A DNA stretch of 64,000 bases. It comes from Cyanophyceae cyanobacterium. Its GTDB lineage: Bacteria; Cyanobacteriota; Cyanobacteriia; Cyanobacteriales; JBHJGN01. The notes beneath the pieces are model-generated. The model was not told where the DNA came from and searched no databases. It worked only from the letters and a program-made list of their open reading frames with translations. Positions 5,496 to 31,060 of the stretch are shown here, piece after piece. Location: positions 32,001 to 96,000 of the forward strand of contig JBHJGN010000037.1 in NCBI GenBank assembly GCA_050331735.1. The letters are read 5' to 3'. Made by a program: the position numbers and the translations under genes. Each line of letters begins with the position of its first letter. The stretch's first letter is position 1.

Positions 5496-5646
5496 AATTT
5501 AAGCGAGGAGAAACGTCAGAATAGAATAGGAGTTGTGAGGTTGGTTCTTCACGTTTATACTTATGTACCTATTATTGCTCATTCTTCACTCGTGATTGCT
5601 GTTTGCAGCAATCCACGATCGCTGCTAATCCCCTCTCTAAAAATCT

Positions 5647-7080: not shown

Positions 7081-7175
7081 AAAAAGCTAATCGTTAATAG
7101 CTTGGAGCCGGAAATTCCTGCTCCCGATCATCCCTTGTTAAACTGTGTTAAGAAATAAAAATTAACACTTACTCA

Positions 7176-7865: not shown

Positions 7866-7874
7866 GCTGAGATA

Positions 7875-9699: not shown

Positions 9700-9784
9700 C
9701 CGCGCTAAGACCCCATTGTTTCACAACAATGTCTTGGCTGCGCTAGAGAGAATTTGAGCCATCAAAGACAATGGCTTGTCGTTC

Positions 9785-10042
9785 TCAGCCATTAGCCTGG
9801 GATTCTTTATCCGTCACTGCTGATGATTTATCTTCAAGCTGGGCATTCATCTTCACAGAGTCTTCAAGCTGTTGGGCTTCGCGTTTAAATTCATTTTCAA
9901 ATTCTTTAGAAGCATCCTGAAAACCTCGAATTGCTTTACCAAGACTGCGGCCAATTTCCGGTAACTTTTTCGGGCCAAAGACGAGTAGAGCGATGACCAG
10001 AATTAAGGTCATCTCCGGTAAACCAATCCCAAAAACGTTCAT
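9785..10042 (-). CDS. tatA: twin-arginine translocase TatA/E
   Basis: FGIGLPEM...FGPKKLPEIGRSLGKAIRGF. Confidence 0.93.
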   Translation of the reverse strand: MNVFGIGLPEMTLILVIALLVFGPKKLPEIGRSLGKAIRGFQDASKEFENEFKREAQQLEDSVKMNAQLEDKSSAVTDKESQANG

Positions 10043-10126
10043 AATTTTCCTCGATAGATTCCGCCTTTATTATGACGAAAAATCCCGGACAAGCCGGGAT
10101 GCCTACAGGATCTAAGGATTAACCAG

Positions 10127-10330
10127 CTATTGTCCGAGGCTTCTCCAGTCCACATCGAAGCTGTTGAGAAGCAGTGAGGAATTATAGATTTGCAGAATAA
10201 TTAAGAGAAACACGAAAAATAACCCCATAAAAACAGCCATGAGCGGGGTTGTTCCCCAACCAGGGGCTACTTTACCATATTCAGAGTTTAAGGGTCTCAA
10301 GATATCCCCTAACCGAGTCCGTTGTGCCAT
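10127..10330 (-). CDS. psbH: photosystem II protein PsbH
   Basis: [21 protein letters not shown]. Confidence 0.97.
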
Positions 10331-10414
10331 AGGTCAACCGTAATGGATTTAAATGAATTTTTGTAATGTTCTGTAATATTATATAAGTAATAGGAATTAT
10401 CAGTAATTTGAAAT

Positions 10415-10546
10415 ATGGAATCTGCAACAGTTCTTAGCATCGGTATTGGTGCGGTCGTGATCGCGATTACGGCTTTATCCATTTACACCTCTTTCGGACC
10501 GCCATCGGCTGAACTGGGCGATCCCTTTGAAGATCATGAAGACTAG
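10415..10546 (+). CDS. psbN: PsbN, 43 aa
   Basis: Hand translation MESATVLSIGIGAVVIAITALSIYTSFGPPSAELGDPFEDHED; divergent from psbH as usual. Confidence 0.95.
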   Translation: MESATVLSIGIGAVVIAITALSIYTSFGPPSAELGDPFEDHED

Positions 10547-10572
10547 AGCCTCATCGGTAGAATAGACATAGC

Positions 10573-13500: not shown

Positions 13501-13764
13501 AGGATAACCCTGTAGATGCTGAGGAATCACAAACTGCTGGGCCAACCAGCGAACGCGGCGACCGGCTGGCCAGGTAATGTATCTCTTGTCATTGAGTGGA
13601 GACAGTTGCCAGTCTGAAGGTTTAATGACCTGCGCTGGACTCGTTCTATCAGCAAAATTGAGTTCGCCAGCATAGCAATGCCACCCAGCTTGGACATCAA
13701 CCTGAGTGAGCTGGCGAAGATTCTCAATGGTTTGGGAAATAGCGTGAGCAGGTGAGTGATCCAT
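10573..13764 (-). CDS. alpha-mannosidase (GH38)
   Basis: HAHLDLAWLW, GGMWVEPD, WLPDSFG, GDHGGG, ELYLELHRG, QFHDILPG. Confidence 0.93.
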   Translation of the reverse strand: MDHSPAHAISQTIENLRQLTQVDVQAGWHCYAGELNFADRTSPAQVIKPSDWQLSPLNDKRYITWPAGRRVRWLAQQFVIPQHLQGYPLAGLSLRLVLTWWAEEAKIYVNGQLVQEGDLFDSSARVLLTDAATPGNIIIVTLRLVSPGHDIGALMQSRCVYETEKPQDPDSQDLKLVDPGFVADELTVLHNYLEAFAPEKLATLATILTAIDWKLVTNAEQFERSLRQLRHRLLPLAAGIQQRCLHLLGHAHLDLAWLWPVEETWEVAERTFTSVLGLQQEFPHLTFCHSTPALYAWIEEHRPELFKAVQAAVMAGRWEVVGGMWVEPDANLLSGESLIRQLLYGQRYTQEKFGQLTKVAWLPDSFGFTWQLPQILKAGGIEYFVTGKLHWNDSTPFPHGVFWWQSPDGTRLLTLMSPPNLAGVMDTNPVIMSRYAVDWEQQTHLKDAFWLPGVGDHGGGPSRDMLEVQQRAAQSPFFPRFQWTTATQYLEQIASAEPQSSSPPSPALVTASSFPTWNDELYLELHRGCYTTHAEQKYFNRYGEGLLYQAELWATLAAICTSSTAAPYSYPQEPIKQAWKKLLFNQFHDILPGTSIPEVFVDANQAWQAVVQAGTKIVSESLEAIASHIAFPQPPHPEAQPVVVFNALNWQRTEVVAYPIAQNNRTVIDLEGNQIPTQCSEQSLLFVAETPSVGYRLYWICPSLQQTQPLNLNREFVLENEKLRVVINPVTGNLDSIFDQAEQREVLGGPGNQLQAFRDRGQYWDAWNIDPDYAQHPLPPAQLISIEWIDQGPVQWRVRVRRRLGQSEFCQDYILQARSPLLKIATTVDWQESHVLVKAAFPLSITSNTVTCEIPCGAIQRPTQPQTPAERAKWEIPALRWADLTDVRYRYGVSLLNDCKYGYDSQPQSLRLTLLRASRWPDSNADRGIHHFTYALYPHQGDWQAAQTVRAGYELNIPLQVREAGRTADAQLSPTHQFLNLSSNNVVLMALKQSEGTAHEWVMRCYECWGEETQLAVTGDLDWEITSRVDGLERPLPSAESKPYLPVKPWKITSLRLRAHPLK

Positions 13765-13864
13765 GATAAGAGGGGACAGAGGAAGAGGGATTAAGTTTCT
13801 ATTCCTTTATTTCCATACCACATTCAACACGCTATATCTGTTTGGTTTATTAGTCACTGATCGC

Positions 13865-15628
13865 TCACTGTCTTGCTTCACTCGTCAATTCCTGATTGAG
13901 GGGAGCTTTTTGCCAGTGGTTTTCATGAACGACGGTATGCACTTGCCAGTCGGGGGAGGGGTGAGGGTAATCGGTGCGGTAGTGTCCACCGCGACTTTCT
14001 TGACGAAAAGCAGCGCTTTTAAGAATCAAATAGGCAATATCGAGCAGATTAAAAGTTTCTGCGGCAGCTTTTACCTGTTCTGCGGCGGCTTCTTCCAGGT
14101 CAACGCTGTGGGTCGGTGACAGGAAAAGATACTGAGCTAACTCAGAGATGGCTACCTCCTCTCGCCAAGACTGGACTCGAGCGATCGCCTTTTCCAAAAG
14201 GACTTGAGAGCGGCAAATTCCGGCACTTTCCCACATCAATCGGGGTAACTCGGCCCGGACGACCCTCAAGGTTGCTAGCTGTGCCTCTAGCGGTCGGTGC
14301 CCAGTGGTAGTAGTGACGTCGCCTACAGGAACGTCAGCGGCTTCTAGTTCCAGATGAGCCAACTGCTGTGCAAACACCAAACACTCTAGGAGAGAGTTGC
14401 TGGCTAAACGATTGGCCCCATGAACGCCAGTGCTGGCAGTTTCGCCGATGGCGTATAGCCCGGGAATCGACGTTTGATTCGTTATGTCAGTGGCAATGCC
14501 TCCCATCCAGTAGTGGGCAGCGGGAGCAACGGGAATTGGTTCTTTGAAGACATCAATGCCCCACTGCTGACAAACCTTGATGATGTTGGGAAAGCGGCGA
14601 CGAATGCGTTCTGGCTCGATGGGTTGCAAATCTAAATAGACATGAGCGCGTTCAGGATGAGCCGCTGTTTTCTGGAGGTGACTAAATATGGCGCGACTGA
14701 CGACATCTCTGGGGGCTAATTCTCCGGCAGGATGATAGTCAAAAGCAAAGCGGGAGCCGCTGGCATCGATTAGGGAGGCTCCTTCGCCCCGCACCGCTTC
14801 GCTGATTAGAAACCGCGGCGCACCTGGCTTGGTTAAAGCCGTGGGGTGAAACTGAAAGAACTCCAAATCGCGCACTGCTGCCCCAGCGCGCCACGCCAGC
14901 GCCACGCCATCTCCGGTACTGACGGCTGGATTGGTGGTTTGGGCAAACACCTGACCGCCGCCTCCGGTGGCTAAAATCACGGCACGACAGCGCAGCCACT
15001 GAATCTGATTACGGTAAAGAAAACTAATTCCTTGACAGCGACCCCGATCCACCCACAAACTTAACGCTAGCGCCTGCGACAGGACTTGAATATTGGTTTG
15101 CTCTAGCACTCGTTCGGTAAGAGTGCTGACAATCGCTCGTCCGGTGGTATCGGCAGCATGAAGAACGCGAGGGTGAGAATGGGCTGCCTCTAGAGTCATG
15201 GCTAGCTGGGCGCCTTGACGGTCAAAAGCCACGCCTAAATCCACTAACGAGGCGATGGCTGCTGCGGCACGATCCACTAGAAATTGAACCGCAGCGCGAT
15301 CGCACAATCCCCCTCCTGCTTTGAGAGTATCTTCCCGGTGCAGTTGGGGAGAATCGGCTGGACTAATGGCGGCGGCAATGCCTCCTTGGGCCCAGTCGCT
15401 TGCCCCAGTATGCAAAGTATCTTTGGTAATCAGCGCGACGCGCCAACGAGCGGGTAAACAGAGCGCGGCATACAGTCCCGCGGCTCCAGTACCTACGACT
15501 AGCACATCAAACTGGGTGGCGAGCCGTTGAGAGTCAAGTGGAAGTGGCGCTTGAGAAGAATTCAATGAGCTACGGTACAGAACTAAAATTTTAGTAAAAA
15601 CCCACCCCGCTGTGGAGTGGGTGAACAA
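13865..15628 (-). CDS. nadB: L-aspartate oxidase (true start probably ~15565)
   Basis: GTGAAGL, AQGGIAA, EAAHS, QFHPT, SEAVRGEG, HGANRLASNSLLE, ESRGGH. Confidence 0.95.
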   Translation of the reverse strand: MFTHSTAGWVFTKILVLYRSSLNSSQAPLPLDSQRLATQFDVLVVGTGAAGLYAALCLPARWRVALITKDTLHTGASDWAQGGIAAAISPADSPQLHREDTLKAGGGLCDRAAVQFLVDRAAAAIASLVDLGVAFDRQGAQLAMTLEAAHSHPRVLHAADTTGRAIVSTLTERVLEQTNIQVLSQALALSLWVDRGRCQGISFLYRNQIQWLRCRAVILATGGGGQVFAQTTNPAVSTGDGVALAWRAGAAVRDLEFFQFHPTALTKPGAPRFLISEAVRGEGASLIDASGSRFAFDYHPAGELAPRDVVSRAIFSHLQKTAAHPERAHVYLDLQPIEPERIRRRFPNIIKVCQQWGIDVFKEPIPVAPAAHYWMGGIATDITNQTSIPGLYAIGETASTGVHGANRLASNSLLECLVFAQQLAHLELEAADVPVGDVTTTTGHRPLEAQLATLRVVRAELPRLMWESAGICRSQVLLEKAIARVQSWREEVAISELAQYLFLSPTHSVDLEEAAAEQVKAAAETFNLLDIAYLILKSAAFRQESRGGHYRTDYPHPSPDWQVHTVVHENHWQKAPLNQELTSEARQ

Positions 15629-19086: not shown

Positions 19087-20469
19087 TTAACCCTTTTTAT
19101 TAATGACCATTTTGACTCTACCTGACGGAGCAAGGGTCACGCCTCGTCGCTGCGGTTGTTCCGGTTTACTGCCAACCAAATCTAGCTCATAGTGTTTCAG
19201 GATTGTTGCTAGAACGAGCTTCATTTCCAACAGCGCTAGCGCATCGCCCACACAGCGACGAGAACCGCCACCAAAGGGCAGAAACTCCCAGTTGGCATAC
19301 TGGCGTTCTAGAAAGCGCTCTGGCTGAAACTGTTTGGGATGGGGATAAAGCTCTTCACGCTGATGCACTAAGTAAATACAGCCCATGACTGCCGTTCCCG
19401 GCTCGAGCGGATGACCCATCAGCTCGACTGGTTCTTGAGCAATTCTGGGAAACATGAGCATGGCTACCGGATAAATTCTTAAAGTCTCCTGACAGACGGC
19501 GGTGAGGTAGGGAAGTCGCGCGATGCTCATCGGGTCTTCATCAGCGCTAGCTAGCTCCTGAAGTAATTGTTCTTTGACTTCTGGCAAAAAGTGGCTCCAG
19601 TATAGCGCCCAAGCCATTGCTGTTGCTGTGGTTTCATGTCCAGCAAACAGCAGCGTCATCAGCTCGTCGCGCAGTTCCTGGTCGGTCATGGGGTTTCCCG
19701 CTTCATCCCGCGCCGATAACAGGAGAGAGAGAATGTCTTGGCGTGTTGACTCAGCCTGGGCGCGACGCTGGGTAATTTCAGCGTAAAGAAGTTGATCGAG
19801 CTGCTGCCGTTGATGCACGAAATATTTCCAGGGATTCCAGGGGAGAAAATCCTGCTGGAGAAAGCGAAAGAAGAGAAAGCTGGAGGTTAGGGGAGAGCGA
19901 AAGATCTCGGTCATTGCAGCGAGCAGTTGCTTGAGCTGCTGGCTGGCCTCGCCCTCATGGAGTCCAAAAACAGCTTCGAGAATGACCTGTAAAGAAATCT
20001 GCTGCATCACCGATCGCGCTGAGCAAGGCTGACCGACCTCTAGCTGATTCATCACCGACTTGGTGATGTGGCAAATCAGCTCGCCATAGGTTCGCAGCCG
20101 TTCTCCATGAAAAGGAGGCATGAGTAGCTGCCGTGCTCGCCGATGGCGATCGCCTTCGCGCATGATGACTGAATACTCCCCCACCAAAGGCTCAATGAGG
20201 CGGTTAGCGTAACCAGGAGCTAAAAACGTGCGGCGCTCCTGCATTAGTTGCTGAATGGCCTGGGGATGGCTAACAAACACCAAGTCGCCAAGGGTGAAGC
20301 CAATTTTGGCGGTGAAAAAATCGTCGTAGCGCTTTGCGGCTCCTTCCATAAAGCCGACGGGATTAGCGATCCAATGGGCAAGCTGGACGGGAGCAGGAGA
20401 TGATAGCAGGTTAGGAGAGGGCATAGGCTCTGTTAAATCAGGTATCAGTAACCAGTTATTGGCGAGCAA
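19087..20469 (-). CDS. cytochrome P450 (CYP110-like)
   Basis: AGHETT, ETLR, PERF, FGGGSRRCVG heme motif. Confidence 0.95.
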   Translation of the reverse strand: MLANNWLLIPDLTEPMPSPNLLSSPAPVQLAHWIANPVGFMEGAAKRYDDFFTAKIGFTLGDLVFVSHPQAIQQLMQERRTFLAPGYANRLIEPLVGEYSVIMREGDRHRRARQLLMPPFHGERLRTYGELICHITKSVMNQLEVGQPCSARSVMQQISLQVILEAVFGLHEGEASQQLKQLLAAMTEIFRSPLTSSFLFFRFLQQDFLPWNPWKYFVHQRQQLDQLLYAEITQRRAQAESTRQDILSLLLSARDEAGNPMTDQELRDELMTLLFAGHETTATAMAWALYWSHFLPEVKEQLLQELASADEDPMSIARLPYLTAVCQETLRIYPVAMLMFPRIAQEPVELMGHPLEPGTAVMGCIYLVHQREELYPHPKQFQPERFLERQYANWEFLPFGGGSRRCVGDALALLEMKLVLATILKHYELDLVGSKPEQPQRRGVTLAPSGRVKMVINKKG

Positions 20470-20551
20470 TTCATGAAGTTAACTAGTCACTCACTAAGCA
20501 CTATAGCTGAACACTCAGCACTGTCCATCGGTAACTGCTCACGGGTCACTG

Positions 20552-21922
20552 TTAAATTGAGCTAACGGTAGCCTGAGTAGAGGGGTGAGAAACGCGATCG
20601 CCCGTCACCACTAGCGGCACCTCGTTGGCTGGGGCAATGGTTAAGCCGCGCCGCGCTGCCTTGATGGGCTTATTGTCTCTCAGAGCAAGCTGGTAACGGG
20701 AGAGAACGGTCGCCAACACTAGGGTCATTTCTAACATAGCAAGGGCCGCTCCTAAACAGCGACGATTGCCGCCACCGAAAGGCAGAAATTCGTAAGCAGA
20801 ATACTGACGCTCAAGAAAGCGCTCTGGCCTGAACTGCTTGGAGTCTGGGTAGAGGTCTTTGCGGTGATGAATTAAATAGATGCAGGGGAAGAAGAGCGTA
20901 TTCGCTTCATACTGGTGTCCCATTACTTCTACTTCAGAGCGAGCAATACGAGGAAACGTCACCGGAACCACGGGATAGATGCGCAGCGTTTCTTGGCAGA
21001 CAGCGGTCAGATAGGGAAGACGGGCGATCGCCATTGGGTCTTCTACTCCATCTAGTTCTTGCAGCAGCTTGTCCTGGACTTGAGGATGCTGGCAAATCCA
21101 GTAGAACGCCCAGGCAAGAGCCGTTGCCGTGGTTTCGTGTCCGGCAATGAGGAGCGTGAGCAGTTCGTCTTGGAGTTCTTCGTCGGTCATGGCTTCACCC
21201 TGCTCATCTCGCGCCGCCATCATCAGGCTAAGCACGTCTGTACCGCTGCTATGGCAAGCGCGGCGCTCCTCAATTTCTGCTTGCAGCAGAGCGCGAATTC
21301 GCTGCTGGCGCTGCTGAAACTGCTGCCAAGGACTCCACGCCCCCCACTTTTTTTGCAGCCAGGGAAAGAATAGGGGACTAGAGCGCAGAGGCGAATCGAA
21401 CATATTGAGCATTGCTGCCAGTAGTGGCTTGAGCTGCTCGTAGCGATCGCCTTCGGCCAGGCCAAATACCGCCTGAAGAATTACCTCTAAGGTAATCTCC
21501 TGCATGGCAGCGCGAGCTTCAAACGGCTGCCCCACCTGCCACTGACTCGCTACCTGCTCAGTAATCTGGCAAATAATATCGCTATAGGTGCGAATACTTT
21601 CACCATGAAAGGACGGCATCAGCAGTTTGCGATCGCGGCGGTGGCGATCGCCATCGAGCACTATCAAAGAGTTTGCTCCCACTAGCGGCTCAACGATATC
21701 ATTACCCCGTCCAGCATCAAACTGTCTGGCATCGACACTGAGGATTTCCTGGACCCCTTGAGGATTACTCATTAGTACAAAGGGTTCAAAGTTGGCTAAG
21801 CGCAGGGTAAAGGTATCGCCATAGCGTTTGGCACACCTCTCCAAAAAATTTAACGGATCGGCGACCCAGTAGATGAGCTGCAATAGGGAAGGAATTCTGG
21901 GACCACTTGGTAAATAACTCAT
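20552..21922 (-). CDS. cytochrome P450 (CYP110-like)
   Basis: AGHETT, ETLR, PERF, FGGGNRRCLG heme motif. Confidence 0.95.
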   Translation of the reverse strand: MSYLPSGPRIPSLLQLIYWVADPLNFLERCAKRYGDTFTLRLANFEPFVLMSNPQGVQEILSVDARQFDAGRGNDIVEPLVGANSLIVLDGDRHRRDRKLLMPSFHGESIRTYSDIICQITEQVASQWQVGQPFEARAAMQEITLEVILQAVFGLAEGDRYEQLKPLLAAMLNMFDSPLRSSPLFFPWLQKKWGAWSPWQQFQQRQQRIRALLQAEIEERRACHSSGTDVLSLMMAARDEQGEAMTDEELQDELLTLLIAGHETTATALAWAFYWICQHPQVQDKLLQELDGVEDPMAIARLPYLTAVCQETLRIYPVVPVTFPRIARSEVEVMGHQYEANTLFFPCIYLIHHRKDLYPDSKQFRPERFLERQYSAYEFLPFGGGNRRCLGAALAMLEMTLVLATVLSRYQLALRDNKPIKAARRGLTIAPANEVPLVVTGDRVSHPSTQATVSSI

Positions 21923-22023
21923 CGTTGTTCTTTCTGAGGTCAGTATCTCTCTCTAATCTAACGAACCAGACATAGACAAAAAAGGTCTACAAAATTGGGG
22001 ACAATCGCTGAAGTGCCCAAGCG

Positions 22024-24750
22024 CTAAATACTGTATGATTTTGGTGCTTCGCAACATACGCGAAAGCCGAAGGTGAAGTCGCGGCTTATATGCGTTAGGT
22101 AGAAGCGAAAAGCAGAACGGCAAGATTCTGGACCATAGAACCAGCAACCGCCTCGCAGCACCTTTCTATTGTCCGCCGTATTTTTTTCTAGCCATGTCCT
22201 GCCGTCTTCTGGTGCTCCTTTGTAATTACTATGCCAGTCATCTTCGCACCACTCTGATACGTTCCCATGCAGATCGTGTAATCCCCAATGATTGGCAGGA
22301 AAGCTTCCTACGTCAGTTGTTTGTTCCCGGTATTCGCCTTTCGGACTACCTTTGTAGGTAGCGTTTCCATTGTAGTTAGCGAGGTTTGTCGTTATTATTC
22401 TACCGAAGTGAAAAGGAGTATTTGTTCCGGCTCGGCAAGCATACTCCCACTCTGATTCACTGGGTAAGCGATAGTTTTTTCCTGTTTTGGCTGACAACCT
22501 CCTACAAAACTCTACTGCCTCCTCCCAACTCACCTCCTCTACCGGATGATTGTCTCCTTTAAAGTGAGATGGATCGAAGTCAAGCGCTCGATCGATTTGT
22601 GACCAGGCAGCGACAATACGCCACTGTGCCTGCGTTATTGGGTAACGTCCCAGGTAAAAGGCTGACAGAGTTACCTGATGTCGAGGTTGTTCCCGGTCAC
22701 AATCAAGTTCTACGCCTTCAACTTCATTTCCTGGGGCTCCCATGACAAAGGTTCCACTTGGTATAGAGATCATTTCTAGTCCAATCTCTTCATTAAGAAC
22801 TTCAGTGTAGCCCCAGTTAGTAGCGCGGCGGCGAACGATTGCTAATTGTCCAACTTGACTAGAGGGGGAACTGAACGAGCCTCCACGTCCTTGCCATTCT
22901 ATCTGGGCTGTCTCAAACTCGAATCGCTCCAATATATGGGTAATTTTGGCTGGCTCGTACTCAAAATCTTGTAAAGGCGGAAAGTTAATGAATTCGGCGA
23001 CTTCGTATTCAATATCTTCGAGGGGAAGCTCTTTGGTCGTAGTTGTGTTTCCATTGAGGAGAGAATAACGACGAGCCAGAGTCGCATAGTCGCCTCCAAG
23101 ACGGCAGAGCGTATTAAGACCTACCCGTGCAAAGGGCAGCGCAGCTTCGCCCAAATTATGCTCTGACTCCTGCAAGTAAACAAGAAATGCTTCAAAACTG
23201 TTGAGGCTGAGACCCGCTTTCTGACTGATGACCTGCGATAGACGATTGAGGACGCTAACGGCTTTGTCTTCCGGCAATCCATCCAGGAGCAAATAGCGCA
23301 CGCGATCGCTCGTATCTGTTGCTCCATCCCCGAAAAACTCATAGTGAGTTTCCTCATCTTCTGTATCGCAGCGCCGCAGTAACCCGCTCAGCAATACTTC
23401 TGCAACATGGGCTTGCTGTGCTTCTGGGAGAAACTCATCCCGCAGGAGGTCGATGACGGGCAAACTGACAGAGGTTGCCGCCATCAATCCGGCCAGTTTC
23501 TGCGCCGTTTGGGATGCCGTTGCCTGAAACAGGGCAACCCGCTGCCGTGCCGTCCGGGATGTCAGTGATTGCAAAGCGGGAGTTTCGGTAGCACGTTCTC
23601 GCACAAACGCCAGTTCAAAAGTTCGCCCAGGGATAGGTTCTCCTGTCCCTGCCACTACCTGTGCCCAGCGATGAAGAGGATTCGGATCGAGGGTAACGAT
23701 AGGCAGCGTCAGCAGGCGCTTGTCTATGGGTTGTAAGGACTCTTCCTCGTCTTCTGCCCACTCATCCCTGTCATCGAGGATTGGCAGCCCGTACACCTCT
23801 AGCTTGGCGTTGGGCGTTCCTGGACTGATTGAGCTTAATTGCACTCGATATCCATCGCTCAGTGCCGTTCGTCCCCATAGCCGCTCCGGGAGCATCTGTA
23901 CAATGGCAATGGGCTGCACCTCCGACCATCGCCGCAGGGTTTCGTGAATTAGCCCCTGTCGCCACAGCGCTGACGTACAGTCAGTGACGAATAGCACCAG
24001 TCGTCTGCCGCTGGGGTCGAGGATTTCTTTGGGGTTCCGGGGGCGTTGACTCGTTTTGGATTGAGTTTTGAAGGTATTCCAGCGGGGAAAAAGTTGGACT
24101 GTGCTATTTTGTGCTTCGAGTCGCCAGGTTCGTACTGTCCGAAAGGCGCCGTGGTATTCGGTGAGATGTTGCAGCTCAGCAATCGCTCTTTCCCACAGTA
24201 CTGTCGTCTTTGAGCCTTCTACGACCAAATCTAGGTCAAGCCAGCGTTCGGGACGGGGGCGTTTTCTAGGCATCCACACGCGGGTTTCGGCAATTTGCGT
24301 GACGGTTTCCTCTTCATCGAGGTCGAACCTTACTTTCGACGGGACTTTTCGCATCAGGGGCTTGAGAGATCGCGCTAGGTCGAGGCGCGTCCGTAGCGCT
24401 GGCGCTGCTGTGGCTGGAAACGGCATGCCTGTGGGTTGTTCTGCTGAGCGATCGTCCTGAACTGAGGCTGGCTCTGAAACTGATTCCGATCCAGAGGGTC
24501 TGTCTGTGACTAGAGCGAAGTCTGATTGCTCGGCGGTTGACGTTTCAGTTATTTCAGGGAGTGGCGTTGTCTTCTCTCTCTTGGTTTGCTTATTGTCGAT
24601 GTCCTGACGCACTGCTGCTCTCGGCTCGATAAACTGAGTGAGCCAGAGGATATCGGCAATATCTACGGCGTTAACGTCTAGCCCAGACTGCTTTAACCTG
24701 GACGCGAACTGTCCGATTGTTGGTCTTCGCTGCTGCTCAAATGTTTCCAC
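22024..24750 (-). CDS. vWA-like (SAV_2336 N-terminal type) protein fused to a C-terminal FGE-sulfatase/CLec domain; vWA component of a VMAP ternary system
   Basis: DIADILWL, RSLKPLMRKVPS...LDEEETV, LDLVVEGS, RRLVLFVTDC, QMLPERLW, HVAEVLLSGLL; C-terminal FVMGAP, RLPSESEWEYACRAG, DLHGNVSEW, LRGGCW. Confidence 0.85.
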   Translation of the reverse strand: METFEQQRRPTIGQFASRLKQSGLDVNAVDIADILWLTQFIEPRAAVRQDIDNKQTKREKTTPLPEITETSTAEQSDFALVTDRPSGSESVSEPASVQDDRSAEQPTGMPFPATAAPALRTRLDLARSLKPLMRKVPSKVRFDLDEEETVTQIAETRVWMPRKRPRPERWLDLDLVVEGSKTTVLWERAIAELQHLTEYHGAFRTVRTWRLEAQNSTVQLFPRWNTFKTQSKTSQRPRNPKEILDPSGRRLVLFVTDCTSALWRQGLIHETLRRWSEVQPIAIVQMLPERLWGRTALSDGYRVQLSSISPGTPNAKLEVYGLPILDDRDEWAEDEEESLQPIDKRLLTLPIVTLDPNPLHRWAQVVAGTGEPIPGRTFELAFVRERATETPALQSLTSRTARQRVALFQATASQTAQKLAGLMAATSVSLPVIDLLRDEFLPEAQQAHVAEVLLSGLLRRCDTEDEETHYEFFGDGATDTSDRVRYLLLDGLPEDKAVSVLNRLSQVISQKAGLSLNSFEAFLVYLQESEHNLGEAALPFARVGLNTLCRLGGDYATLARRYSLLNGNTTTTKELPLEDIEYEVAEFINFPPLQDFEYEPAKITHILERFEFETAQIEWQGRGGSFSSPSSQVGQLAIVRRRATNWGYTEVLNEEIGLEMISIPSGTFVMGAPGNEVEGVELDCDREQPRHQVTLSAFYLGRYPITQAQWRIVAAWSQIDRALDFDPSHFKGDNHPVEEVSWEEAVEFCRRLSAKTGKNYRLPSESEWEYACRAGTNTPFHFGRIITTNLANYNGNATYKGSPKGEYREQTTDVGSFPANHWGLHDLHGNVSEWCEDDWHSNYKGAPEDGRTWLEKNTADNRKVLRGGCWFYGPESCRSAFRFYLTHISRDFTFGFRVCCEAPKSYSI

Positions 24751-25775
24751 AGTCGTTCGATGAGGTCGTCTGGAGTATGAACATTGTCACTTACGTTGGG
24801 TGCTCGTTCGCGGGTAACCAGATAGATAGCGTTGAGGAGCTGGTCTGTTGCTAAGTCGCCTTTGCTGCGGTCGTTGCGCTTGTTGACAAACCGCGTGATC
24901 AGCTGCTGGATCAGTTCTTCCGATTGGGCAATTAGCTTTTCCCCATCCTTTTCCTGCTTGAGGTGAGCTTTGACAATGGCTTCGAGGCGCTCTTCGTCGG
25001 GTTCTGCCATTGTTAGCCGCACGCAGCGACGTAAGAAGGGAGGCGGAAAGTCTCGCTCGCCGTTACTGGTTAGAACCATCAGCGGAAACTGCTGACTGGT
25101 AATTTTGCCCCCCTTAATAGTTGCTGTCGTATCGGCAAAGGTAAATTCTTGTTTGTCTTTATAAGCTGTTCGTACCGTCACCTCTGGCTTTTTCTCTTCA
25201 ATTCGCACCAGTTCCGGTATTTCAAACTCCCCTTCTTCAAAAACGGTGAGCAGATCGTTGGGCAGGTCGATATCGCTTTTGTCGATTTCGTCTACGATTA
25301 ACACGCGGGGCTTGTCAGAGGGGAGAAGGGCAGTTCCGAGGGATCCCAGACGAATATAGTTGCCGATATTGTCGAAATTGCCCCGCTCTTTCTCGCCAAC
25401 ATCCTGCAAGCGCGCGATCGCATCGTAGAGATACAGACCGTCCTTGAGGGTAGTCCGGGTGGTGATCGGCCAGTAGAGCACCTCTCCGAGGTTCAGTTCG
25501 CGGGCGATCGCATAGGCGAGGGAGGTTTTGCCGCTGCCCGGTTTGCCCGTTACAAGCAAGGGTCGCCGCAGATACAGCGCCGCATTCACTAGCTCGATTT
25601 CCTGGGGCTGAGCCTGAAACGTTTTTCCCCGTTCCTGCTTGCGACGGTCAGACTGTCTCCAGGGAGGGGGAGGAGGTAGATGGGCGAGCGGGTCTAAGCC
25701 TGGATCTGGATTGGGTTCTCCGGTTCCTTTGAAGATGGGCTGAAAAATTGGCTGAATCTTAGGCTGGTCGTTCAT
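24693..25775 (-). CDS. MoxR-family AAA+ ATPase of a VMAP ternary system
   Basis: LPPPPPWR, VNAALYLRRPLLVTGKPGSGKTS (Walker A), VLIVDEIDKSDIDLPNDLL (Walker B), TSNGERDFPPPFLRRC, ATDQLLNA. Start taken at MNDQ. Confidence 0.92.
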   Translation of the reverse strand: MNDQPKIQPIFQPIFKGTGEPNPDPGLDPLAHLPPPPPWRQSDRRKQERGKTFQAQPQEIELVNAALYLRRPLLVTGKPGSGKTSLAYAIARELNLGEVLYWPITTRTTLKDGLYLYDAIARLQDVGEKERGNFDNIGNYIRLGSLGTALLPSDKPRVLIVDEIDKSDIDLPNDLLTVFEEGEFEIPELVRIEEKKPEVTVRTAYKDKQEFTFADTTATIKGGKITSQQFPLMVLTSNGERDFPPPFLRRCVRLTMAEPDEERLEAIVKAHLKQEKDGEKLIAQSEELIQQLITRFVNKRNDRSKGDLATDQLLNAIYLVTRERAPNVSDNVHTPDDLIERLWKHLSSSEDQQSDSSRPG

Positions 25776-25779
25776 GACC

Positions 25780-27570
25780 TTAACAAGCCTCCTGATCAAA
25801 TTGCAGGTCCATCGTGGGCGGCACAATCTTCGCATCTTCCCAAACTAGACTAAGATGACCCCCCAGGCAATGGTTGTCATCTTCCCTCAGTGCGTCGAGC
25901 CTTTCTTCATAAATTCGCTGAGGGAGTTCGGCTACGGTGCGGTCTAGGATACGATCAACTTCATGACATAGTTTTGAGTGTCTTACCCACAGTGCAACAG
26001 GGAGTGCTGTTTTTCTAGCGATAAATTCAAAGACGCTCTCAACTTGCTCTGCTGATAAATTTTCCAGGATTGCCATCTCAGCAGTCTTTAATCCCAACAG
26101 TTCTGCATTTTTTGTTGTATCAACCCAGACGAATGTTTCCCGCGCAGTATGTTGTGATTTCGCTTCTATATGCTGCCATTTATCTTGCCAGCGCCTAAAG
26201 TACTTCTTCCCCGTCGGTGATTGGTTGAGATCGGTTCGCATTACCACTTTATACTGACTTCCCAGGGTTAAATCTGACAACGTTTTAGAGGAGTCGAAAT
26301 CGCGATCGAGCCAAGCACGCGGCACAAAAAAGTGAACCATTGGCTCGTTTAAGGTCGATTTCTCTTCTAGGCAAGTTTCAACGAAGTCTGGCAAATCTGC
26401 ATAGGGAAGAGTATGTTCTTGCAGCAAGTAGGGCAATGGTTCTTGCGGGTTGTAGGTATGGCGATCGCTAATCTCCCACATTGAGATCCAAACCTTTTCC
26501 TTGTCTTTTTCGTCTGGTCTCACTTCTACCACTAAATGTTCGGACGAGTCAGCGGAAGAAACGTTGCGCTCTCGTTTTTCTAAGATGGCGCGGCTCTGCA
26601 AGCTATCGAAGTAAAATCCGCGATACTCAACCCAATTTTTAATTTGTTGGTACATGGAACCCGATACCGCATCCATTGTTGCCAGAAAAATTGCAAACTG
26701 TGTCAGTCGATCAACGTTATCCCAACCGCGATTTCCTAACTGGCTCAAGCTTAGCAGCCGCGACTGCAACATCTTTTTCTCCCCCCAGACAGAACCAGAA
26801 TCGCAGAGGCGAAAGGCGGTGGCGATCGCACTGCTGAGTTTCTGCTGGTTGTCATTAGAAAGTTGTTGCAGATGGTTTTCGATCAGATCGCACAGGCTAT
26901 AAACACTAAGTTTTTTGAGAACGCCGTCTAGCTCTTTTTTCGGAATGGCGTATGCCTTGCTTCTTTGCTCATCTCTGGAGACTAACGCCGTAGCAATCAT
27001 GCCAATGACGCAGGTTCGTTGTTCATTCCAAACAGGTGCGCCGCTAAATCCTGCTTGAATTGTTTCATCGTTGGGATTACCTGCTTTATAAAACTGAAAG
27101 CGTCCTCCAGCAGTGCGTATTTTGGGAATGTATGCATCTGAGCGCTCACCGTTTTCATTGCTAAAGCCATAAACAGAATGTTCGTCGTTTTCAATATCTG
27201 ACAAACTGACTTGAACAAGCGGAATTGGCTTAGATTCACTCGGTTCCGCTTTGAGTAGTTTTAACCCAGCAACATCCCCTCGACTGACGCTATAAGGGAG
27301 CCAAGCTACCACTTTTGCCTTAATTTTGTCCCCGTCAGCGAGAATAGGAAAATCGAGGAATACCAGTTCTTTAACGACTTCTTTGTAAGAAGCAGATTTT
27401 TGTTTGTCAAAGTCGATACCGACCGCCTGTAAGACAACGTGGGCGCAAGTCAGCACGTAACCAGGAGCCACTAGGAATCCCGTCCCGATCGCCGTCTCTG
27501 TGTCTTGGTAGAAAATCCGCGCAATAGATTGTTCGTAATCTTCCCAAGTGAAAGTCACTTCTTCTGCCAT
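25780..27570 (-). CDS. trypsin-like peptidase fused to a VMAP C-terminal domain
   Basis: Triad motifs LTCAHV / DVAGLKL / GFSGAPV; C-terminal HFFVPRAWL, LGSQYKVVMR, WQDKW, PVALWVR, HLSLVWED..PP typical of VMAP-C. Confidence 0.85.
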   Translation of the reverse strand: MAEEVTFTWEDYEQSIARIFYQDTETAIGTGFLVAPGYVLTCAHVVLQAVGIDFDKQKSASYKEVVKELVFLDFPILADGDKIKAKVVAWLPYSVSRGDVAGLKLLKAEPSESKPIPLVQVSLSDIENDEHSVYGFSNENGERSDAYIPKIRTAGGRFQFYKAGNPNDETIQAGFSGAPVWNEQRTCVIGMIATALVSRDEQRSKAYAIPKKELDGVLKKLSVYSLCDLIENHLQQLSNDNQQKLSSAIATAFRLCDSGSVWGEKKMLQSRLLSLSQLGNRGWDNVDRLTQFAIFLATMDAVSGSMYQQIKNWVEYRGFYFDSLQSRAILEKRERNVSSADSSEHLVVEVRPDEKDKEKVWISMWEISDRHTYNPQEPLPYLLQEHTLPYADLPDFVETCLEEKSTLNEPMVHFFVPRAWLDRDFDSSKTLSDLTLGSQYKVVMRTDLNQSPTGKKYFRRWQDKWQHIEAKSQHTARETFVWVDTTKNAELLGLKTAEMAILENLSAEQVESVFEFIARKTALPVALWVRHSKLCHEVDRILDRTVAELPQRIYEERLDALREDDNHCLGGHLSLVWEDAKIVPPTMDLQFDQEAC

Positions 27571-27872
27571 TTCAGCGTTATTTCGTAATTTGCCTCTCCG
27601 CCAACCTTGGTGAGTACCGCCCCTACTTCACCGTTGAGCTTAACACTAAACTTTACCTCTACCTCGTCTGTCGGCTCGATGACTGCATCTAGCTTTTTCT
27701 TGACCGATTGAATCATAGGCAGCAGGTTATCTAAAGCCTGAGCGAAAGTTTTTCTCGCAGTTGCAGCTATCTCGTTGGGCGCCCTCGAAATCGGTCGAAT
27801 TTCTTCGACATCTTCAACTTCAACAAGAATTCTTCCGCCTTCACCCGTGTCGAATTCGACAAGCTGTGCCAT
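27555..27872 (-). CDS. Trypco1 (trypsin-co-occurring, CU044_2847-like) protein
   Basis: ILVEV...DEVEVKFSVKL..EVGAVLTKVGGEANYEITLKW; overlaps the trypsin gene start by 16 nt. Confidence 0.85.
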   Translation of the reverse strand: MAQLVEFDTGEGGRILVEVEDVEEIRPISRAPNEIAATARKTFAQALDNLLPMIQSVKKKLDAVIEPTDEVEVKFSVKLNGEVGAVLTKVGGEANYEITLKWQKK

Positions 27873-27982
27873 TAGCTAAACGTCTCCTGAAATCACTTCG
27901 GCAGTAATACCTCAATAGTTTATACAGTAGTTGCCCCTGAATTTCCGTATTTTTTCTCAAAGGAGATCAAAAAATAAATCGA

Positions 27983-27998
27983 CTCGCCGTTAGGTGAG
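27983..27998. other. DNA hairpin 3' of the FGE gene (DGR target hairpin-like)
   Basis: CTCGCC-GTTA-GGTGAG, ~25 bp past the stop codon; flanks shared with 29554-29569. Confidence 0.6.
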
Positions 27999-28023
27999 AA
28001 ATCAAAGGACCAAGAGAAAAGGG

Positions 28024-28974
28024 CTAAAGTGCCTGAGCGCCAAAAGTCCTCGGCATCTTGCAACACACTCGAACACCGATATCTTTGAGGCGGTAGTCAC
28101 GCAAATCCCCGTAGCGGTTAGTAGAACGGCAATTCTTCGGATACACGAGCCAAGAACCACCCCGCAGAAGCTTATCAGTATCTGTCGCGTTCTCCTCTAT
28201 CCATGCGCTTCCATTCACTGGTGCTCCTCTATAGCTATCATGCCAATCATCTTGACACCATTCCCAGACATTTCCGTGCATATCGTGTAGTCCAAAATTA
28301 TTTGGGGGAAAGATACCTACTTCTGTCGTTTCTCTTCGGTATTTTCCCACTATGCCTTTCCCGTAAGTTCCTTTATAAAGAGTATCGCCAATCTTTTCGT
28401 CCTGAGCGCGATAGTTTGCTAGTTCGTCACTCAGTGTTTCGCCAAAATGAAAAGGAGCTTTTGTCCCCGCTCGACAGGCATATTCCCACTGCGCCTCGCT
28501 GGGCAGGTGGTAGGTTCTACCTGTTTTGACTGATAATCGCTGACAAAACTCTATCGCCTCTTCCCAAATCACATTTTCCACGGGACGGTTGTCTCCTTTA
28601 AAGTGCGATGGATCTGAGTTTAGCTTGCACTTGTCTTTGGGCCAGTTGGCAACGATGCGCCATTGAGTTTGGGTGACAGGATATCGCCCCATCAAAAACG
28701 ATGAAACTATGACTTCATGTTGCGGTCGTTCATCGTTGTAACTTTCCAGTTCATCTTCCGGTGCTCCCATCAGGAATTTGCCACTAGGAATCAGCACCAT
28801 ATCCAAGCTAACTTCGTCACTGAGGGTTTCGATGAAGTGTTTGCCCCTGCGCCGATAGCGGCTGACGAGAATACGTTTTTCGGCGGTTTCTTCTGCCATT
28901 TGTTGGAGCTGCGTTTTGGACCGGACCACTGAATTTAATGTCCGGTTGGATAACTCTTGGGAGTTTCCTACCAA
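28024..28974 (-). CDS. stand-alone FGE-sulfatase/CLec protein, putative DGR target (ATG start may be 28899)
   Basis: FLMGAP, YPVTQ, LPSEAQWEYACRAG, DMHGNVWEW, LRGGSW...CRS...GVRVCC. Confidence 0.9.
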   Translation of the reverse strand: MVGNSQELSNRTLNSVVRSKTQLQQMAEETAEKRILVSRYRRRGKHFIETLSDEVSLDMVLIPSGKFLMGAPEDELESYNDERPQHEVIVSSFLMGRYPVTQTQWRIVANWPKDKCKLNSDPSHFKGDNRPVENVIWEEAIEFCQRLSVKTGRTYHLPSEAQWEYACRAGTKAPFHFGETLSDELANYRAQDEKIGDTLYKGTYGKGIVGKYRRETTEVGIFPPNNFGLHDMHGNVWEWCQDDWHDSYRGAPVNGSAWIEENATDTDKLLRGGSWLVYPKNCRSTNRYGDLRDYRLKDIGVRVCCKMPRTFGAQAL

Positions 28975-29085
28975 GAAGCCCTAATCTTACCTTAAAGCGC
29001 TGGCGAATGAATTGGTGGACTACAAACCGTAATCCGCTATTAGAGTTTCCAATTTGAGGAAAGCGATCGCCCTGAGAAGTATATA

Positions 29086-29439
29086 TTACGGCTGCTGCTC
29101 TCCTGCTAGCCGAGAGAGCGATTGAGCAATGCTAGCCATGTTCTCAGCAAGCGTAACTCTATCTTCATTGAAACCTTGAATGATTTCAAACATAGTTGCT
29201 TGATGAGCTGTTAATGCCGAAACATCTCTAGTTAACTGTGCTATTTGAGCATCGGTTCGCCGACGGTCACGAACGACATCTGAAGTTAAAGCCTCAATGG
29301 CCTTAGCATTAGAGTTAATCCTGGCATCAGTCTGAACCGACTGCTGAGCCAATTGCTCTAGCAAAGCTTCTATTCTGTCGAGGCGATCGCTTGGCGTTCC
29401 CGAAGGGCGATCGCCTCCATCGGGATTAGTTATCGGCAT
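29086..29439 (-). CDS. small coiled-coil hypothetical protein
   Basis: DRLDRIEALLEQL...INSNAKAIEAL heptads; AGGAG ribosome-binding site upstream. Confidence 0.75.
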   Translation of the reverse strand: MPITNPDGGDRPSGTPSDRLDRIEALLEQLAQQSVQTDARINSNAKAIEALTSDVVRDRRRTDAQIAQLTRDVSALTAHQATMFEIIQGFNEDRVTLAENMASIAQSLSRLAGEQQP

Positions 29440-29553
29440 ACTCCTAGCAATGTTTACTGTCTGATTGTTGTCTATTTCCTTGGAGATAGCGATCGCCTTC
29501 AGAAGGTACGGTCTCGTATGTTTTCATCCTAATGCTTTCTAAAAAAAATTAGA

Positions 29554-29569
29554 CTCGTCTAACGGCGAG
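29554..29569. other. DNA hairpin 3' of the FGE gene (DGR target hairpin-like)
   Basis: CTCGTC-TAAC-GGCGAG, ~25 bp past the stop codon. Confidence 0.6.
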
Positions 29570-29594
29570 ATATCAAAGGGCTAACCCCTAAAAG

Positions 29595-30437
29595 CTAAGG
29601 GCTAAAGTGAAGAATCCTCGGCACCTCGCAACACACACGAAACCCAATATTGCCGTAGCGGTAGTAGCGTGGATCGCTGCGGCGGTAAGCAGAACGGCAA
29701 TACCACGGAGCGCTGTTCCAAGCACCGCCCCGCAGCAGCTTGTTAGTCTGCGTTCCGCCTGCTCCCAGCCACGCCCTACCGTCTACTGGTGCCCCTTCAT
29801 AGCTATCATGCCAGTCATCTTCGCACCACTCCCACAGATTTCCATGCATGTCGTGTAATCCCCACCGATTGGCTGGAAAACTTCCTACATCCATCATCCC
29901 ACCTCGATATTTTCCTTCGAGGCTGCCGTTGTAAGTTTTCGTAGTGTCGTAGCTCGCCAACTCTGCCGTAATCATTTCGCCATAGTGGAAGGGCGTTTCT
30001 GTTTCTGCCCGACAGGCGTATTCCCACTCGGCTTCACTCGGTAGGCGATAGCTTCTCCCCGTTTTCGCTGATAGCCGCCGACAAAATTCCTTAGCGTCTT
30101 CCCAGCTCACCTGCTCTACAGGTCGATTCTCGCCTTTAAAGGTCGATGGGTTTCGCTCTAGCTCCCGCTCAACTAGCGGATAACCTGCCACCACGCGCCA
30201 CTGCGCCTGAGTCACCGGATACCGCCCCAGCAAAAACGACTCCAGCTTCACTCGATGTTGCGATCGCTCGGAGCCACTACTTTCTGGCTCACTCTCTGGT
30301 GCGCCCATCAAAAACTCACCCGCCGGAATAAGCATCAGCGTCAGGGTTACGCCCTCAGCCAGTTGTTCGTGCAGGCATTTATTTCTCCGTCTGTACCGAT
30401 GGAGCATTAGGCCAGAACTGGCAGGAGCGTTAGTCAT
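29595..30437 (-). CDS. stand-alone FGE-sulfatase/CLec protein, putative DGR target
   Basis: FLMGAP, RLPSEAEWEYACRA, DMHGNLWEW, LRGGAW...CRSA...IGFRVCC. Confidence 0.9.
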   Translation of the reverse strand: MTNAPASSGLMLHRYRRRNKCLHEQLAEGVTLTLMLIPAGEFLMGAPESEPESSGSERSQHRVKLESFLLGRYPVTQAQWRVVAGYPLVERELERNPSTFKGENRPVEQVSWEDAKEFCRRLSAKTGRSYRLPSEAEWEYACRAETETPFHYGEMITAELASYDTTKTYNGSLEGKYRGGMMDVGSFPANRWGLHDMHGNLWEWCEDDWHDSYEGAPVDGRAWLGAGGTQTNKLLRGGAWNSAPWYCRSAYRRSDPRYYRYGNIGFRVCCEVPRILHFSP

Positions 30438-31060
30438 CTACCAGCCCTTAACACTTGTTCAGCCGTCAGTTTCAAATCCGGGAAGGTTGGAGAGACAATG
30501 GTTTGCTTACCCCGAAGTTTCTGAATTTCATACTCCTCATTCACTAGCATACAAACAGAGAGGGTAGGCTGTTTGGGCTTGCCAATATGTCGAGTACCAC
30601 CTAATCCGGCGTAGTCTGCAATCCAATATTCGGGAATACCTAAAACCGCGTAGTCTTCGACCTTACGGGCATAATCATTTTGCCAGTTGCTACTAACGAC
30701 TTCCGCTACAAATTTAATCGAACTACCCAGCGTCAGGATCGACTGGTCAGACCAAAGCAGTTCTTTAGTCAATTCATCTCGATCAACAACTGCAACATCA
30801 GGTCGAAATGCTGTCATGCCAGTATTAGAGGGGCGAAATAGACCCCGCTGAAGAACAAACCAATCTAAGCCTATGCTGTCGATGTGAACACAGACCTTTG
30901 CGGTAATGAAGGCTGCAACCTCTTCGTGCAAGCCTGTTGGTTCCAAGTCGAACACCTCTCCATCGATCAGTTCATAACGGTTATAGCTACCATAACAAGC
31001 AAGAAACTCGTCAAAGCTAAGTGGCTTTTGCTGTATTGGTTGATTGATCGCAAGGGTCAT
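30434..31060 (-). CDS. Uma2-family (DUF820) endonuclease
   Basis: YELIDGE, RPDVAVV, VAEVVS, DYARK..Y...GIPEYWI, SPTFPDLKL. Confidence 0.9.
   Translation of the reverse strand: MTLAINQPIQQKPLSFDEFLACYGSYNRYELIDGEVFDLEPTGLHEEVAAFITAKVCVHIDSIGLDWFVLQRGLFRPSNTGMTAFRPDVAVVDRDELTKELLWSDQSILTLGSSIKFVAEVVSSNWQNDYARKVEDYAVLGIPEYWIADYAGLGGTRHIGKPKQPTLSVCMLVNEEYEIQKLRGKQTIVSPTFPDLKLTAEQVLRAGR

Follow-up and report, generated by a model that had tools for sequence, protein, structure and literature searches.

The 64,000-nt stretch of cyanobacterial DNA analyzed here (the window, at its full length) carries on its minus strand four tightly packed genes that form a system of the cyanobacterial von Willebrand factor A (vWA)-FGS subtype of the VMAP ternary conflict systems, a known and computationally described class defined by Kaur, Burroughs, Iyer and Aravind (2020, eLife; PMC7159879). 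The genes encode a Trypco1 protein, a trypsin-VMAP fusion, a MoxR-type AAA+ ATPase and a 908-aa vWA-like protein that ends in an FGE-sulfatase domain of C-type-lectin fold (FGS). With a probability of roughly 0.6, we favor the reading that this is an intact vWA-FGS/VMAP system with a Trypco1-trypsin arm, which would sense through its FGS domain and respond through its trypsin, and the specificity of which, once written by a diversity-generating retroelement (DGR), would now be fixed. We infer a defence function for the operon.

Family assignment and gene structure

A preliminary description of this DNA, made from the sequence alone, had placed the four genes in the ternary class, and family matches above cut-offs, conserved motifs, gene order and a vWA-fold model all agree with that assignment. 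The families named there (Trypco1, Trypsin_2, VMAP-C and VMAP-M, AAA_5 and FGE-sulfatase) were all matched above curated cut-offs. The first gene, read as Trypco1-like, matched the Pfam Trypco1 family (PF19493; 79.2 bits against a cut-off of 24.6, E = 3.7e-22) as well as an NCBIfam family, and lies directly upstream of the VMAP gene. The VMAP protein consists of a trypsin domain (Trypsin_2, residues 29-191, E = 3.5e-12), a VMAP-M1 domain (residues 242-349, E = 4.6e-6) and a VMAP-C domain (PF20028, residues 359-580). The VMAP-C match, on which the earlier assignment had turned, spanned positions 2-226 of the 226 in the profile with 93.5 bits against a cut-off of 27 (E = 2.4e-26). The His44/Asp99/Ser176 triad was unchanged in all 47 aligned VMAP proteins, in keeping with the earlier description of a trypsin with intact catalytic residues fused to VMAP-C. 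A complex prediction for the trypsin domain (residues 1-235) with Trypco1 gave a score of 0.01, which speaks neither way.

The ATPase matched AAA_5 in Pfam (37.3 bits against a cut-off of 22, E = 3.3e-9), and its Walker A (GKPGSGKT) and Walker B (DEID) motifs were identical in five of five aligned ATPases, so that a MoxR ATPase with intact Walker motifs, as first described, was recovered. In a profile search against solved structures the best match of the ATPase was Midasin (E = 4.4e-5), over the P-loop region only; a phmmer search against solved structures gave no match.

All four open reading frames (ORFs) were confirmed, and the spacing originally reported for them (a 16-nt overlap, a 4-nt gap and a 58-nt overlap) was reproduced if the ATG at 25775 is taken as the start of the MoxR gene; with the longest MoxR ORF, the overlap with the VMAP gene would be 56 nt. 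The 16-nt overlap between the Trypco1 and VMAP genes holds with the ATG start of VMAP. The same protein in a public gene call (P0121) has 592 aa, which fits a GTG 12 nt further in that abuts the Trypco1 stop. The 58-nt overlap of the MoxR and vWA-FGS genes holds with a GTG start at 24750, and this start is supported because the consensus of 50 homologues opens with the same MET..QQRR N-terminus. Scanning for promoters and terminators yielded fewer sites than shuffled sequences did and was uninformative.

The vWA-like protein and its likeness to MoxR partners

The 908-aa protein matched SAV_2336_NTERM over residues 29-513 (NCBIfam, E = 7.8e-119) and FGE-sulfatase (PF03781) over residues 659-898 (174.2 bits, E = 5e-51). 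No vWA domain was detected in it by Pfam. Residues 1-650 were folded with a 50-homologue alignment, giving a model with a mean predicted local distance difference test (pLDDT) score of 75.5 and values mostly above 85 in the core (residues 120-560). For model residues ~113-370 the VIA structure search returned the metal ion-dependent adhesion site (MIDAS) domains of MDN1 (Z 9.5; 163 residues, root-mean-square deviation [rmsd] 3.9) and Rea1 (Z 9.4), further CMG2 (8.6), ANTXR2 (8.4) and NorD (7.8), and then a long run of other vWA domains. Foldseek returned nothing at E <= 0.001, its top rows being weak matches to NorD of the NorQD complex (E = 5e-3). Mainly on the VIA matches, residues ~113-370 are therefore predicted to adopt a vWA/MIDAS-like fold. 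The fold model and the PF03781 match together uphold the earlier picture of a vWA-like protein ending in an FGE-sulfatase domain. Because the MIDAS domains of MDN1 and Rea1 and the NorD domain rank among the top matches, the model is nearest to partner domains of the MoxR clade.

Within this domain Asp257, which follows the strand at 250-256, was invariant in 50 of 50 sequences. After the strand at 172-178 stands Glu178-x-Ser180-x-Thr182, as read from sequence and secondary structure, with Glu178 kept in at least 90%. A faint likeness of residues 400-500 to winged-helix modules in STAND and ORC proteins (Z ~7) is too weak to build on.

The nearest known arrangements are thus the Midasin/Rea1 MIDAS domain with its AAA+ ring and the NorD-NorQ pair: the vWA-fold model lies closest to these and the ATPase profile has its best match in Midasin. 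They differ in being assembly or metal-insertion chaperones, and the sequence similarity detected is confined to the P-loop.

Distribution of the system

The gene order Trypco1/trypsin-VMAP/MoxR/vWA-FGS recurs in two relatives (G011 and G006) and is also matched at a locus of a Symploca metagenome-assembled genome (MAG). Among metagenome loci with at least 4.5 kb upstream, MoxR was present at 42 of 43 and VMAP-C at 37 of 43 (redundant contigs included), and Trypco1 was found at 20 of 22 related loci that bear a trypsin; according to the part of PMC7159879 consulted, trypsin-bearing VMAPs are accompanied by Trypco1 or Trypco2. The homologue searches gave at least 290 homologues of the vWA N-terminal part at E <= 1e-10, at least 205 of the trypsin-VMAP protein and 1190 cluster representatives of the Trypco1 family at E <= 1e-3. 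With the window VMAP as query, full-length matches were obtained only in G011 (45% identity) and G006 (27%), and a contig search with the single vWA protein as query returned only two loci. A count over the 120 vWA homologues listed gave about 108 with PF03781 at the end, seven with other families (pentapeptide repeats, GUN4, N6_N4 methyltransferase and AAA_35 among them) and five with none. The FGS domain is described in the consulted part of PMC7159879 as nearly exclusive to cyanobacterial VMAP systems and always C-terminal on the vWA component. The genes in the window, CPP1-like and Uma2 genes among them, mark it as cyanobacterial.

Presence and absence were patchy and not universal, as the preliminary description would have it: 10 of 40 genomes searched from the same order contained VMAP-C (PF20028), with 1-4 matches apiece, and the 14 control genomes contained none; the genome of the window itself has two matches. 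This bears on the very improbable alternative that the genes form a housekeeping MoxR-vWA chaperone or maturation module, serving for example the adjoining cytochrome P450s, or a sulfatase by way of an enzymatic FGE domain. The known MoxR-vWA pairs NorQ-NorD and RavA-ViaA are described as maturation chaperones, and two P450 genes lie 101 nt downstream on the same strand. A housekeeping role fits poorly with the restriction of VMAP-C to a quarter of the same-order genomes; P450 homologues were found at one of 80 related loci, what comes after the vWA-FGS gene in relatives is a DGR and not P450 genes, and a variable protein of a DGR can be aligned to the FGS end (below).

The FGS domain ends in a DGR-type variable region

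In both G011 and G006 the operon runs on into a part missed by the preliminary description, consisting of bAvd (PF22296), a reverse transcriptase (RT; RVT_1) and a short FGS-only gene. With the FGS gene ends of the genome of the window we built a variable-region profile, which found three or four sites in each of eight DGR-bearing loci; in all eight one site, the template repeat, lay directly 3' of the RT gene. When the G011 template repeat was compared with its own two variable regions, differences affected 14 of 31 and 12 of 30 A sites but just 1 of 77 and 2 of 76 sites of other kinds; the same holds for G006. Since these differences fall nearly all at A sites, the DGRs of the relatives write the FGS ends.

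The same imprint is present in the window. We compared the three FGS copies of the window (the vWA-FGS gene end and two FGS-only genes) over the 24-codon stretch flanked by the RGGxW and GFRV motifs. Differences at codon positions 1/2/3 numbered 16/14/9, 12/14/10 and 14/8/6 in this stretch, compared with 63/45/119, 53/53/121 and 56/48/116 in the rest of the FGS domain (Fisher p 0.0008 to 0.0065). Pyrimidines filled 75-88% of the third codon positions of the stretch vs 37-51% elsewhere (79% vs 48% in the vWA-FGS gene). A reversed codon pattern together with pyrimidine third positions is what randomized AAY codons leave. In the heterologous comparison of the G011 template repeat with the three window regions, 25, 19 and 21 of 32 A sites differed (59-78%), as did 31, 34 and 26 of 85 other sites (31-40%). 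Over its full length the variable stretch can also be aligned to the C-terminus of TvpA (2y3c), a solved DGR target. The preliminary description had proposed merely that the ligand-binding domain is variable; the codon imprint, the TvpA alignment and the A-site excess make a stronger case, namely that the FGS end is a DGR-type variable region.

An all-beta extension (strands 610-620 and 635-645) precedes the FGS domain. Solved FGEs (formylglycine-generating enzymes) matched the domain at E ~1e-16, more weakly than PvdO at 1e-31. The catalytic cysteine pair of FGE presumably falls within the variable stretch.

Loss of the retroelement

The assembly to which the window belongs (5.57 Mb in 99 contigs, 99.98% complete) contained no DGR reverse transcriptase, its sole RVT_1 match being an RT-Cas1 fusion, and tblastn with the DGR RTs of G011 and G006 likewise found only that fusion. 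No template repeat was found in the assembly; nhmmer with the variable-region profile recovered only eight FGS gene ends, and blastn agreed. No bAvd was found within the window. A 117-aa ORF between the two FGS-only genes (orf117) was considered as a degenerate bAvd and rejected, with BLASTP E-values of 0.31 and 34 and no bAvd match in Pfam even at E = 10. The RT-Cas1 fusion gene (L010, contig C26:2-1657, minus strand) runs off the contig end and implies an RT-assisted CRISPR adaptation module.

Among the contigs of sequencing run X1, one near-identical contig spans the whole of positions 21500-30600. Within the three stretches of variable-region type no variants were found; this does not imply monomorphy, since rare variants are lost from contigs. 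Among 25 metagenome loci that have a vWA-FGS fusion and extend at least 4 kb further downstream, 12 held a DGR RT and 13 lacked one (redundant contigs included; the RT may lie elsewhere in the genome). This compares with linkage to a DGR in ~80% of cyanobacterial and gammaproteobacterial VMAP systems as stated in PMC7159879. As the genome shows neither a DGR RT nor a template repeat, this copy, if working at all, would have frozen specificity.

A second VMAP system of the same genome, a paralogue on contig C1, shows the same condition. It encodes an EAD1-trypsin (352 aa), a 162-aa ORF of no assigned family, an EAD1-VMAP-C protein (490 aa), a MoxR (386 aa, 41% identical) and a vWA-FGS protein (896 aa), together with FGS-only genes of 290 and 272 aa and two adjoining Uma2 genes. 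Its trypsin is a separate protein, tied to VMAP through the common EAD1 domain. Its variable regions are cleaner than those of the window, with differences of 13/7/3, 12/9/3 and 13/6/0 at codon positions 1/2/3. Wedged between the C1 vWA-FGS gene and the 290-aa FGS gene, right before the ATG of the latter, is a truncated bAvd of which 39 residues are 82% identical to the G006 bAvd and are followed by a stop. This remnant is a deletion scar: the DGR of C1 has been lost, its RT and template repeat together with the remainder of bAvd. Given this scar and the lack of a DGR in the assembly, both systems of the genome are DGR orphans.

The loss could also mean that the window operon is a decaying relic, no longer tracking its target, heading toward pseudogenization and of no present function. 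We hold this to be improbable. In its favor, beside the missing RT and template repeat and the truncated bAvd at C1, the closest orthologous locus fetched (Symploca sp. SIO3C6 MAG, L022 1-15473, 64% identity) has its vWA-FGS frame split into three, with no more than the last 24 residues of Trypco1 detectable, and differences at third positions and at non-A sites are more numerous in the window variable regions than in the C1 trio. The window itself argues otherwise, with all four reading frames and both FGS-only genes intact and catalytic and nucleotide-binding residues kept, and the 13 comparable loci without a nearby RT indicate that DGR-less copies persist widely. At the Symploca locus an IS605-type TnpB comes after these genes, and the broken frames represent decay or assembly error.

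FGS-only genes beside the operon

Two FGS-only genes, unremarked in the preliminary description, lie upstream of the operon on the same strand and carry the same codon imprint. Their products of 316 and 280 aa are 54% and 57% identical, respectively, to the FGS part of the vWA protein. Short FGS-only genes come after the DGR in G011 and G006, and a short CLec-only target beside a long one is described in related loci by Dore et al. (2024; PMC10907252). The two genes are probably satellite sensors of the system. Directly after the stop of each lies a 47-nt element (72% identical between the two copies) that carries an imperfect hairpin (6 bp, loop of 4 nt) and, on the coding strand, a run of T, which makes it terminator-like; the two genes are therefore probably separate transcripts. 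They seem to have been duplicated jointly with their 3' flank.

A CHAT-like model of VMAP-C

The describers of VMAP-C did not unify it with any known fold in the part of PMC7159879 consulted. Residues 236-596 of the VMAP protein were modeled with a pLDDT of 89.9. The structure neighbors of the VMAP-C model in the Atlas were all VMAP-C clusters (TM 0.75-0.87); an Atlas search by features gave no usable match. The VIA search with the 236-596 model placed three TPR-CHAT (Csx29) entries at the top (Z 11.6, 10.3 and 10.2; each ~200 residues at rmsd 3.5-3.8, the best alignment comprising 204 residues at rmsd 3.6), followed by five separase entries (Z 7.5-8.3), two ciliary central-apparatus chains and, further down, DdvA (6.6) and two gingipains (6.3), before a drop to 5.2. 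The TPR-CHAT, separase, DdvA and gingipain families have the caspase fold in common. Foldseek also gave TPR-CHAT (7zoq_A) as top match of the VMAP model (E = 2.4e-4, probability 0.99), with alignments that take in the helical VMAP-M1.

Profile comparison returned no such likeness: hhalign of 48 VMAP rows against ten CHAT domains (PF12770) of the same genome gave a probability of 0.6%, and Pfam found no CHAT match on the VMAP protein. VMAP-C also has no invariant cysteine, the best column being position 485, a cysteine in 37 of the 48 rows but a threonine in the window protein; His413 was present in 46 of the 48 (judged without residue-level superposition on CHAT). A likeness of VMAP-C to CHAT or separase was not found in the literature searched. 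As a lead from the model, VMAP-C may be a CHAT-like scaffold without a working dyad. In the helical-repeat plus CHAT architecture, the modeled VMAP-M1 and VMAP-C resemble TPR-CHAT (Csx29) of the type III-E CRISPR Craspase and separase; unlike these, VMAP shows neither profile similarity nor an invariant Cys, and its active protease is the added trypsin domain.

Taking this further, we propose, tentatively and at somewhat less than even odds, that VMAP-C could be a degenerate CHAT/separase caspase-fold domain behind a helical repeat. VMAP would then be an allosteric scaffold that docks on MoxR-vWA and releases its added N-terminal trypsin, the old active site having faded. With the DGR of the sensor also lost, a fixed-specificity innate version of an adaptive sensor would remain.

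Proposed mechanism and direction of signaling

Under our favored reading, the C-type-lectin-fold FGS domain on the vWA protein would bind a non-self ligand in the cytoplasm with a surface once written by a DGR and now fixed, and the two FGS-only proteins would perhaps likewise bind ligand. The vWA/MIDAS-like domain would couple binding to a MoxR hexamer, in the manner of Midasin-MIDAS and NorD-NorQ, and ATP-driven remodeling would be passed to VMAP through the helical VMAP-M1 and the CHAT-like VMAP-C, the latter acting as a docking and switching module. The N-terminal trypsin protease would thereby be released, its activity modulated by Trypco1, and proteolysis would halt or kill the infected cell. 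A model with vWA-CLec as sensor and the VMAP trypsin as effector has been put forward by Dore et al. (2024; PMC10907252), and a 2026 preprint (10.64898/2026.09.08.750141) reports experiments in support of a beta-propeller MoxR-vWA pathway that senses threats. We favor the wiring of Dore et al. because relatives rewrite the FGS end and because the variable domain senses in the related pathway for which there are experiments.

The same system could be wired in the opposite direction, as proposed in PMC7159879: the variable helical VMAP-M would sense, MoxR-vWA would gate, and the trypsin would cleave the vWA protein and free FGS as the effector. We consider this unlikely, yet the foremost of the alternatives, ahead of a decaying relic and, last, a housekeeping chaperone. 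Low-confidence linkers in the vWA-FGS model (residues 42-117 and 569-605) are possible cleavage sites, and VMAP-M1 is the least conserved part of VMAP by its match. Speaking for FGS as the sensor instead, the C-type-lectin-fold domain has no evident toxic activity; the hypermutated part in relatives is the FGS end and not VMAP-M, indicating that it is FGS that meets a changing ligand, as Dore et al. (PMC10907252) also argue; and the variable domain is the sensor in the beta-propeller relative (10.64898/2026.09.08.750141).

Several points count against our favored reading. The MIDAS motif is Asp-x-Ser-x-Ser, and the first acidic residue of the window protein is apparently Glu178 and not Asp, so metal or peptide binding is not assured. 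Ordinary diversifying selection could contribute to the excess at codon positions 1 and 2; DGR ancestry is favored all the same, because these regions have their frame of constant codons in common with real template repeats. The genome may be a metagenome assembly (a metagenome run was flagged as its possible source), in which case an RT could sit on an unbinned contig. As 13 of the 25 comparable metagenome loci have no RT, a DGR-less neighborhood is not unusual. PADLOC-DB 2.0 has no model for the whole system and gave no match for Trypco1 or the vWA-FGS protein, its partial matches being the trypsin domain to LmuA and an RT-protease and the P-loop to IetA. It is disputed which way the signal runs; in the account of Kaur et al., VMAP-M is the sensor and the peptidase frees domains from the vWA protein. 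Finally, no experiments on this locus or on any VMAP-type system were found in the literature searched, and the remark of the preliminary description that such systems have seen little experimental characterization still holds for the VMAP type in that literature.

Comparison with known systems

The operon shares with the DGR-linked cyanobacterial vWA-FGS systems of Kaur et al. (PMC7159879) its four core parts and their order, the Trypco1-trypsin combination, VMAP-M1/VMAP-C and a C-terminal FGS with an all-beta extension; it differs from those systems in that bAvd, an RT and a template repeat are missing both from the locus and from the assembly. In contrast to G011 and G006, the window has two P450 genes at the DGR place and its FGS-only genes lie on the upstream side, not downstream. 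DGR loci 4, 5 and 7 of Thiohalocapsa PB-PSB1 (Dore et al., 2024, PNAS; PMC10907252) differ by an active DGR and a gammaproteobacterial host, and in some of them CLec domains occur in tandem or NACHT or phosphodiesterase domains are added. In the Esr pathways of Schaalia odontolytica (bioRxiv 10.64898/2026.09.08.750141) a conserved MoxR and vWA pair likewise relays from a sequence-variable sensor to a response. There, as far as the consulted part of the preprint describes, sensing falls to a beta-propeller protein at the surface, the output runs through a kinase/FHA phosphorelay to Esx secretion, and VMAP, trypsin and FGS have no part.

Neighboring genes

The coordinates of the system and of its neighbors are collected in Table 1. 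The Uma2 gene, the two P450 genes and orf117 were considered as parts of the system and rejected, homologues being found at 1, 1 and 0 of 80 related loci, respectively. The two tandem P450 genes occupy the position where relatives carry the DGR; their best NCBIfam rows were P450s of ribosomally synthesized and post-translationally modified peptide (RiPP) and terpene pathways, well below cut-off, and the single related locus with homologues is a metagenome locus (L104). The Uma2-family gene, which has a 4-nt overlap with the 280-aa FGS gene at the start of the latter, matched PADLOC candidate PDC-S03 (E = 1e-82), and tblastn with it gave 11 matches in the genome of the window at E <= 1e-5. The product of orf117 matched no family, has a paralogue on contig C52 (44% identity) and looks coiled-coil, to judge from weak matches below cut-off. 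Further away, an IS605 OrfB/TnpB-type gene (OrfB_IS605 plus a Cas12f1-like TNB) adjoins a truncated-looking DUF3179 ORF.

Table 1. Coordinates of the VMAP system, its satellite and neighboring features in the window, and its paralogue on contig C1.
Feature	Position	Strand	Size	Domains and remarks
Trypco1 gene	27555..27872	-	105 aa	PF19493 (Pfam), CU044_2847_fam (NCBIfam)
VMAP gene	25780..27570	-	596 aa	trypsin 26998-27486, VMAP-M1 26524-26847, VMAP-C 25831-26496
MoxR-type AAA+ ATPase gene	24693..25775	-	360 aa	from ATG at 25775; AAA_5
Longest MoxR ORF	24693-25835	-	380 aa	
vWA-FGS gene	22024..24750	-	908 aa	predicted vWA/MIDAS-like fold 23641-24414, helical middle, FGE-sulfatase/C-type-lectin-fold domain 22057-22776
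Variable-region-like stretch at the vWA-FGS gene end	22069..22140	-	24 codons	F871-F894; DGR-type codon pattern
FGS-only gene	28024..28974	-	316 aa	FGE-sulfatase E = 5.3e-53; variable-region-like codons 28078-28149
FGS-only gene	29595..30437	-	280 aa	FGE-sulfatase E = 2.4e-50; variable-region-like codons 29646-29717
Terminator-like elements	27967-28013, 29538-29584		47 nt	
orf117	29086-29439	-	117 aa	between the two FGS-only genes
Uma2-family gene	30434-31060	-		
Tandem cytochrome P450 genes	19087-21922	-		
IS605 OrfB/TnpB-type gene	43138-44331	+		
Second VMAP system	contig C1, L009 (C1:110001-128000), ~5134-13061 plus 13325-14143			
Truncated bAvd of the second system	L009:6010-6136	-	39 residues	

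Significance

As a locus, the operon is ordinary, being one more copy of a system type catalogued in 2020. The CHAT-like model of VMAP-C offers a testable structural idea for the role of the constant third component of these systems, and the presence of two intact, DGR-less VMAP systems in one genome provides a natural fixed-specificity setting in which ligand binding by FGS could be studied without ongoing hypermutation.

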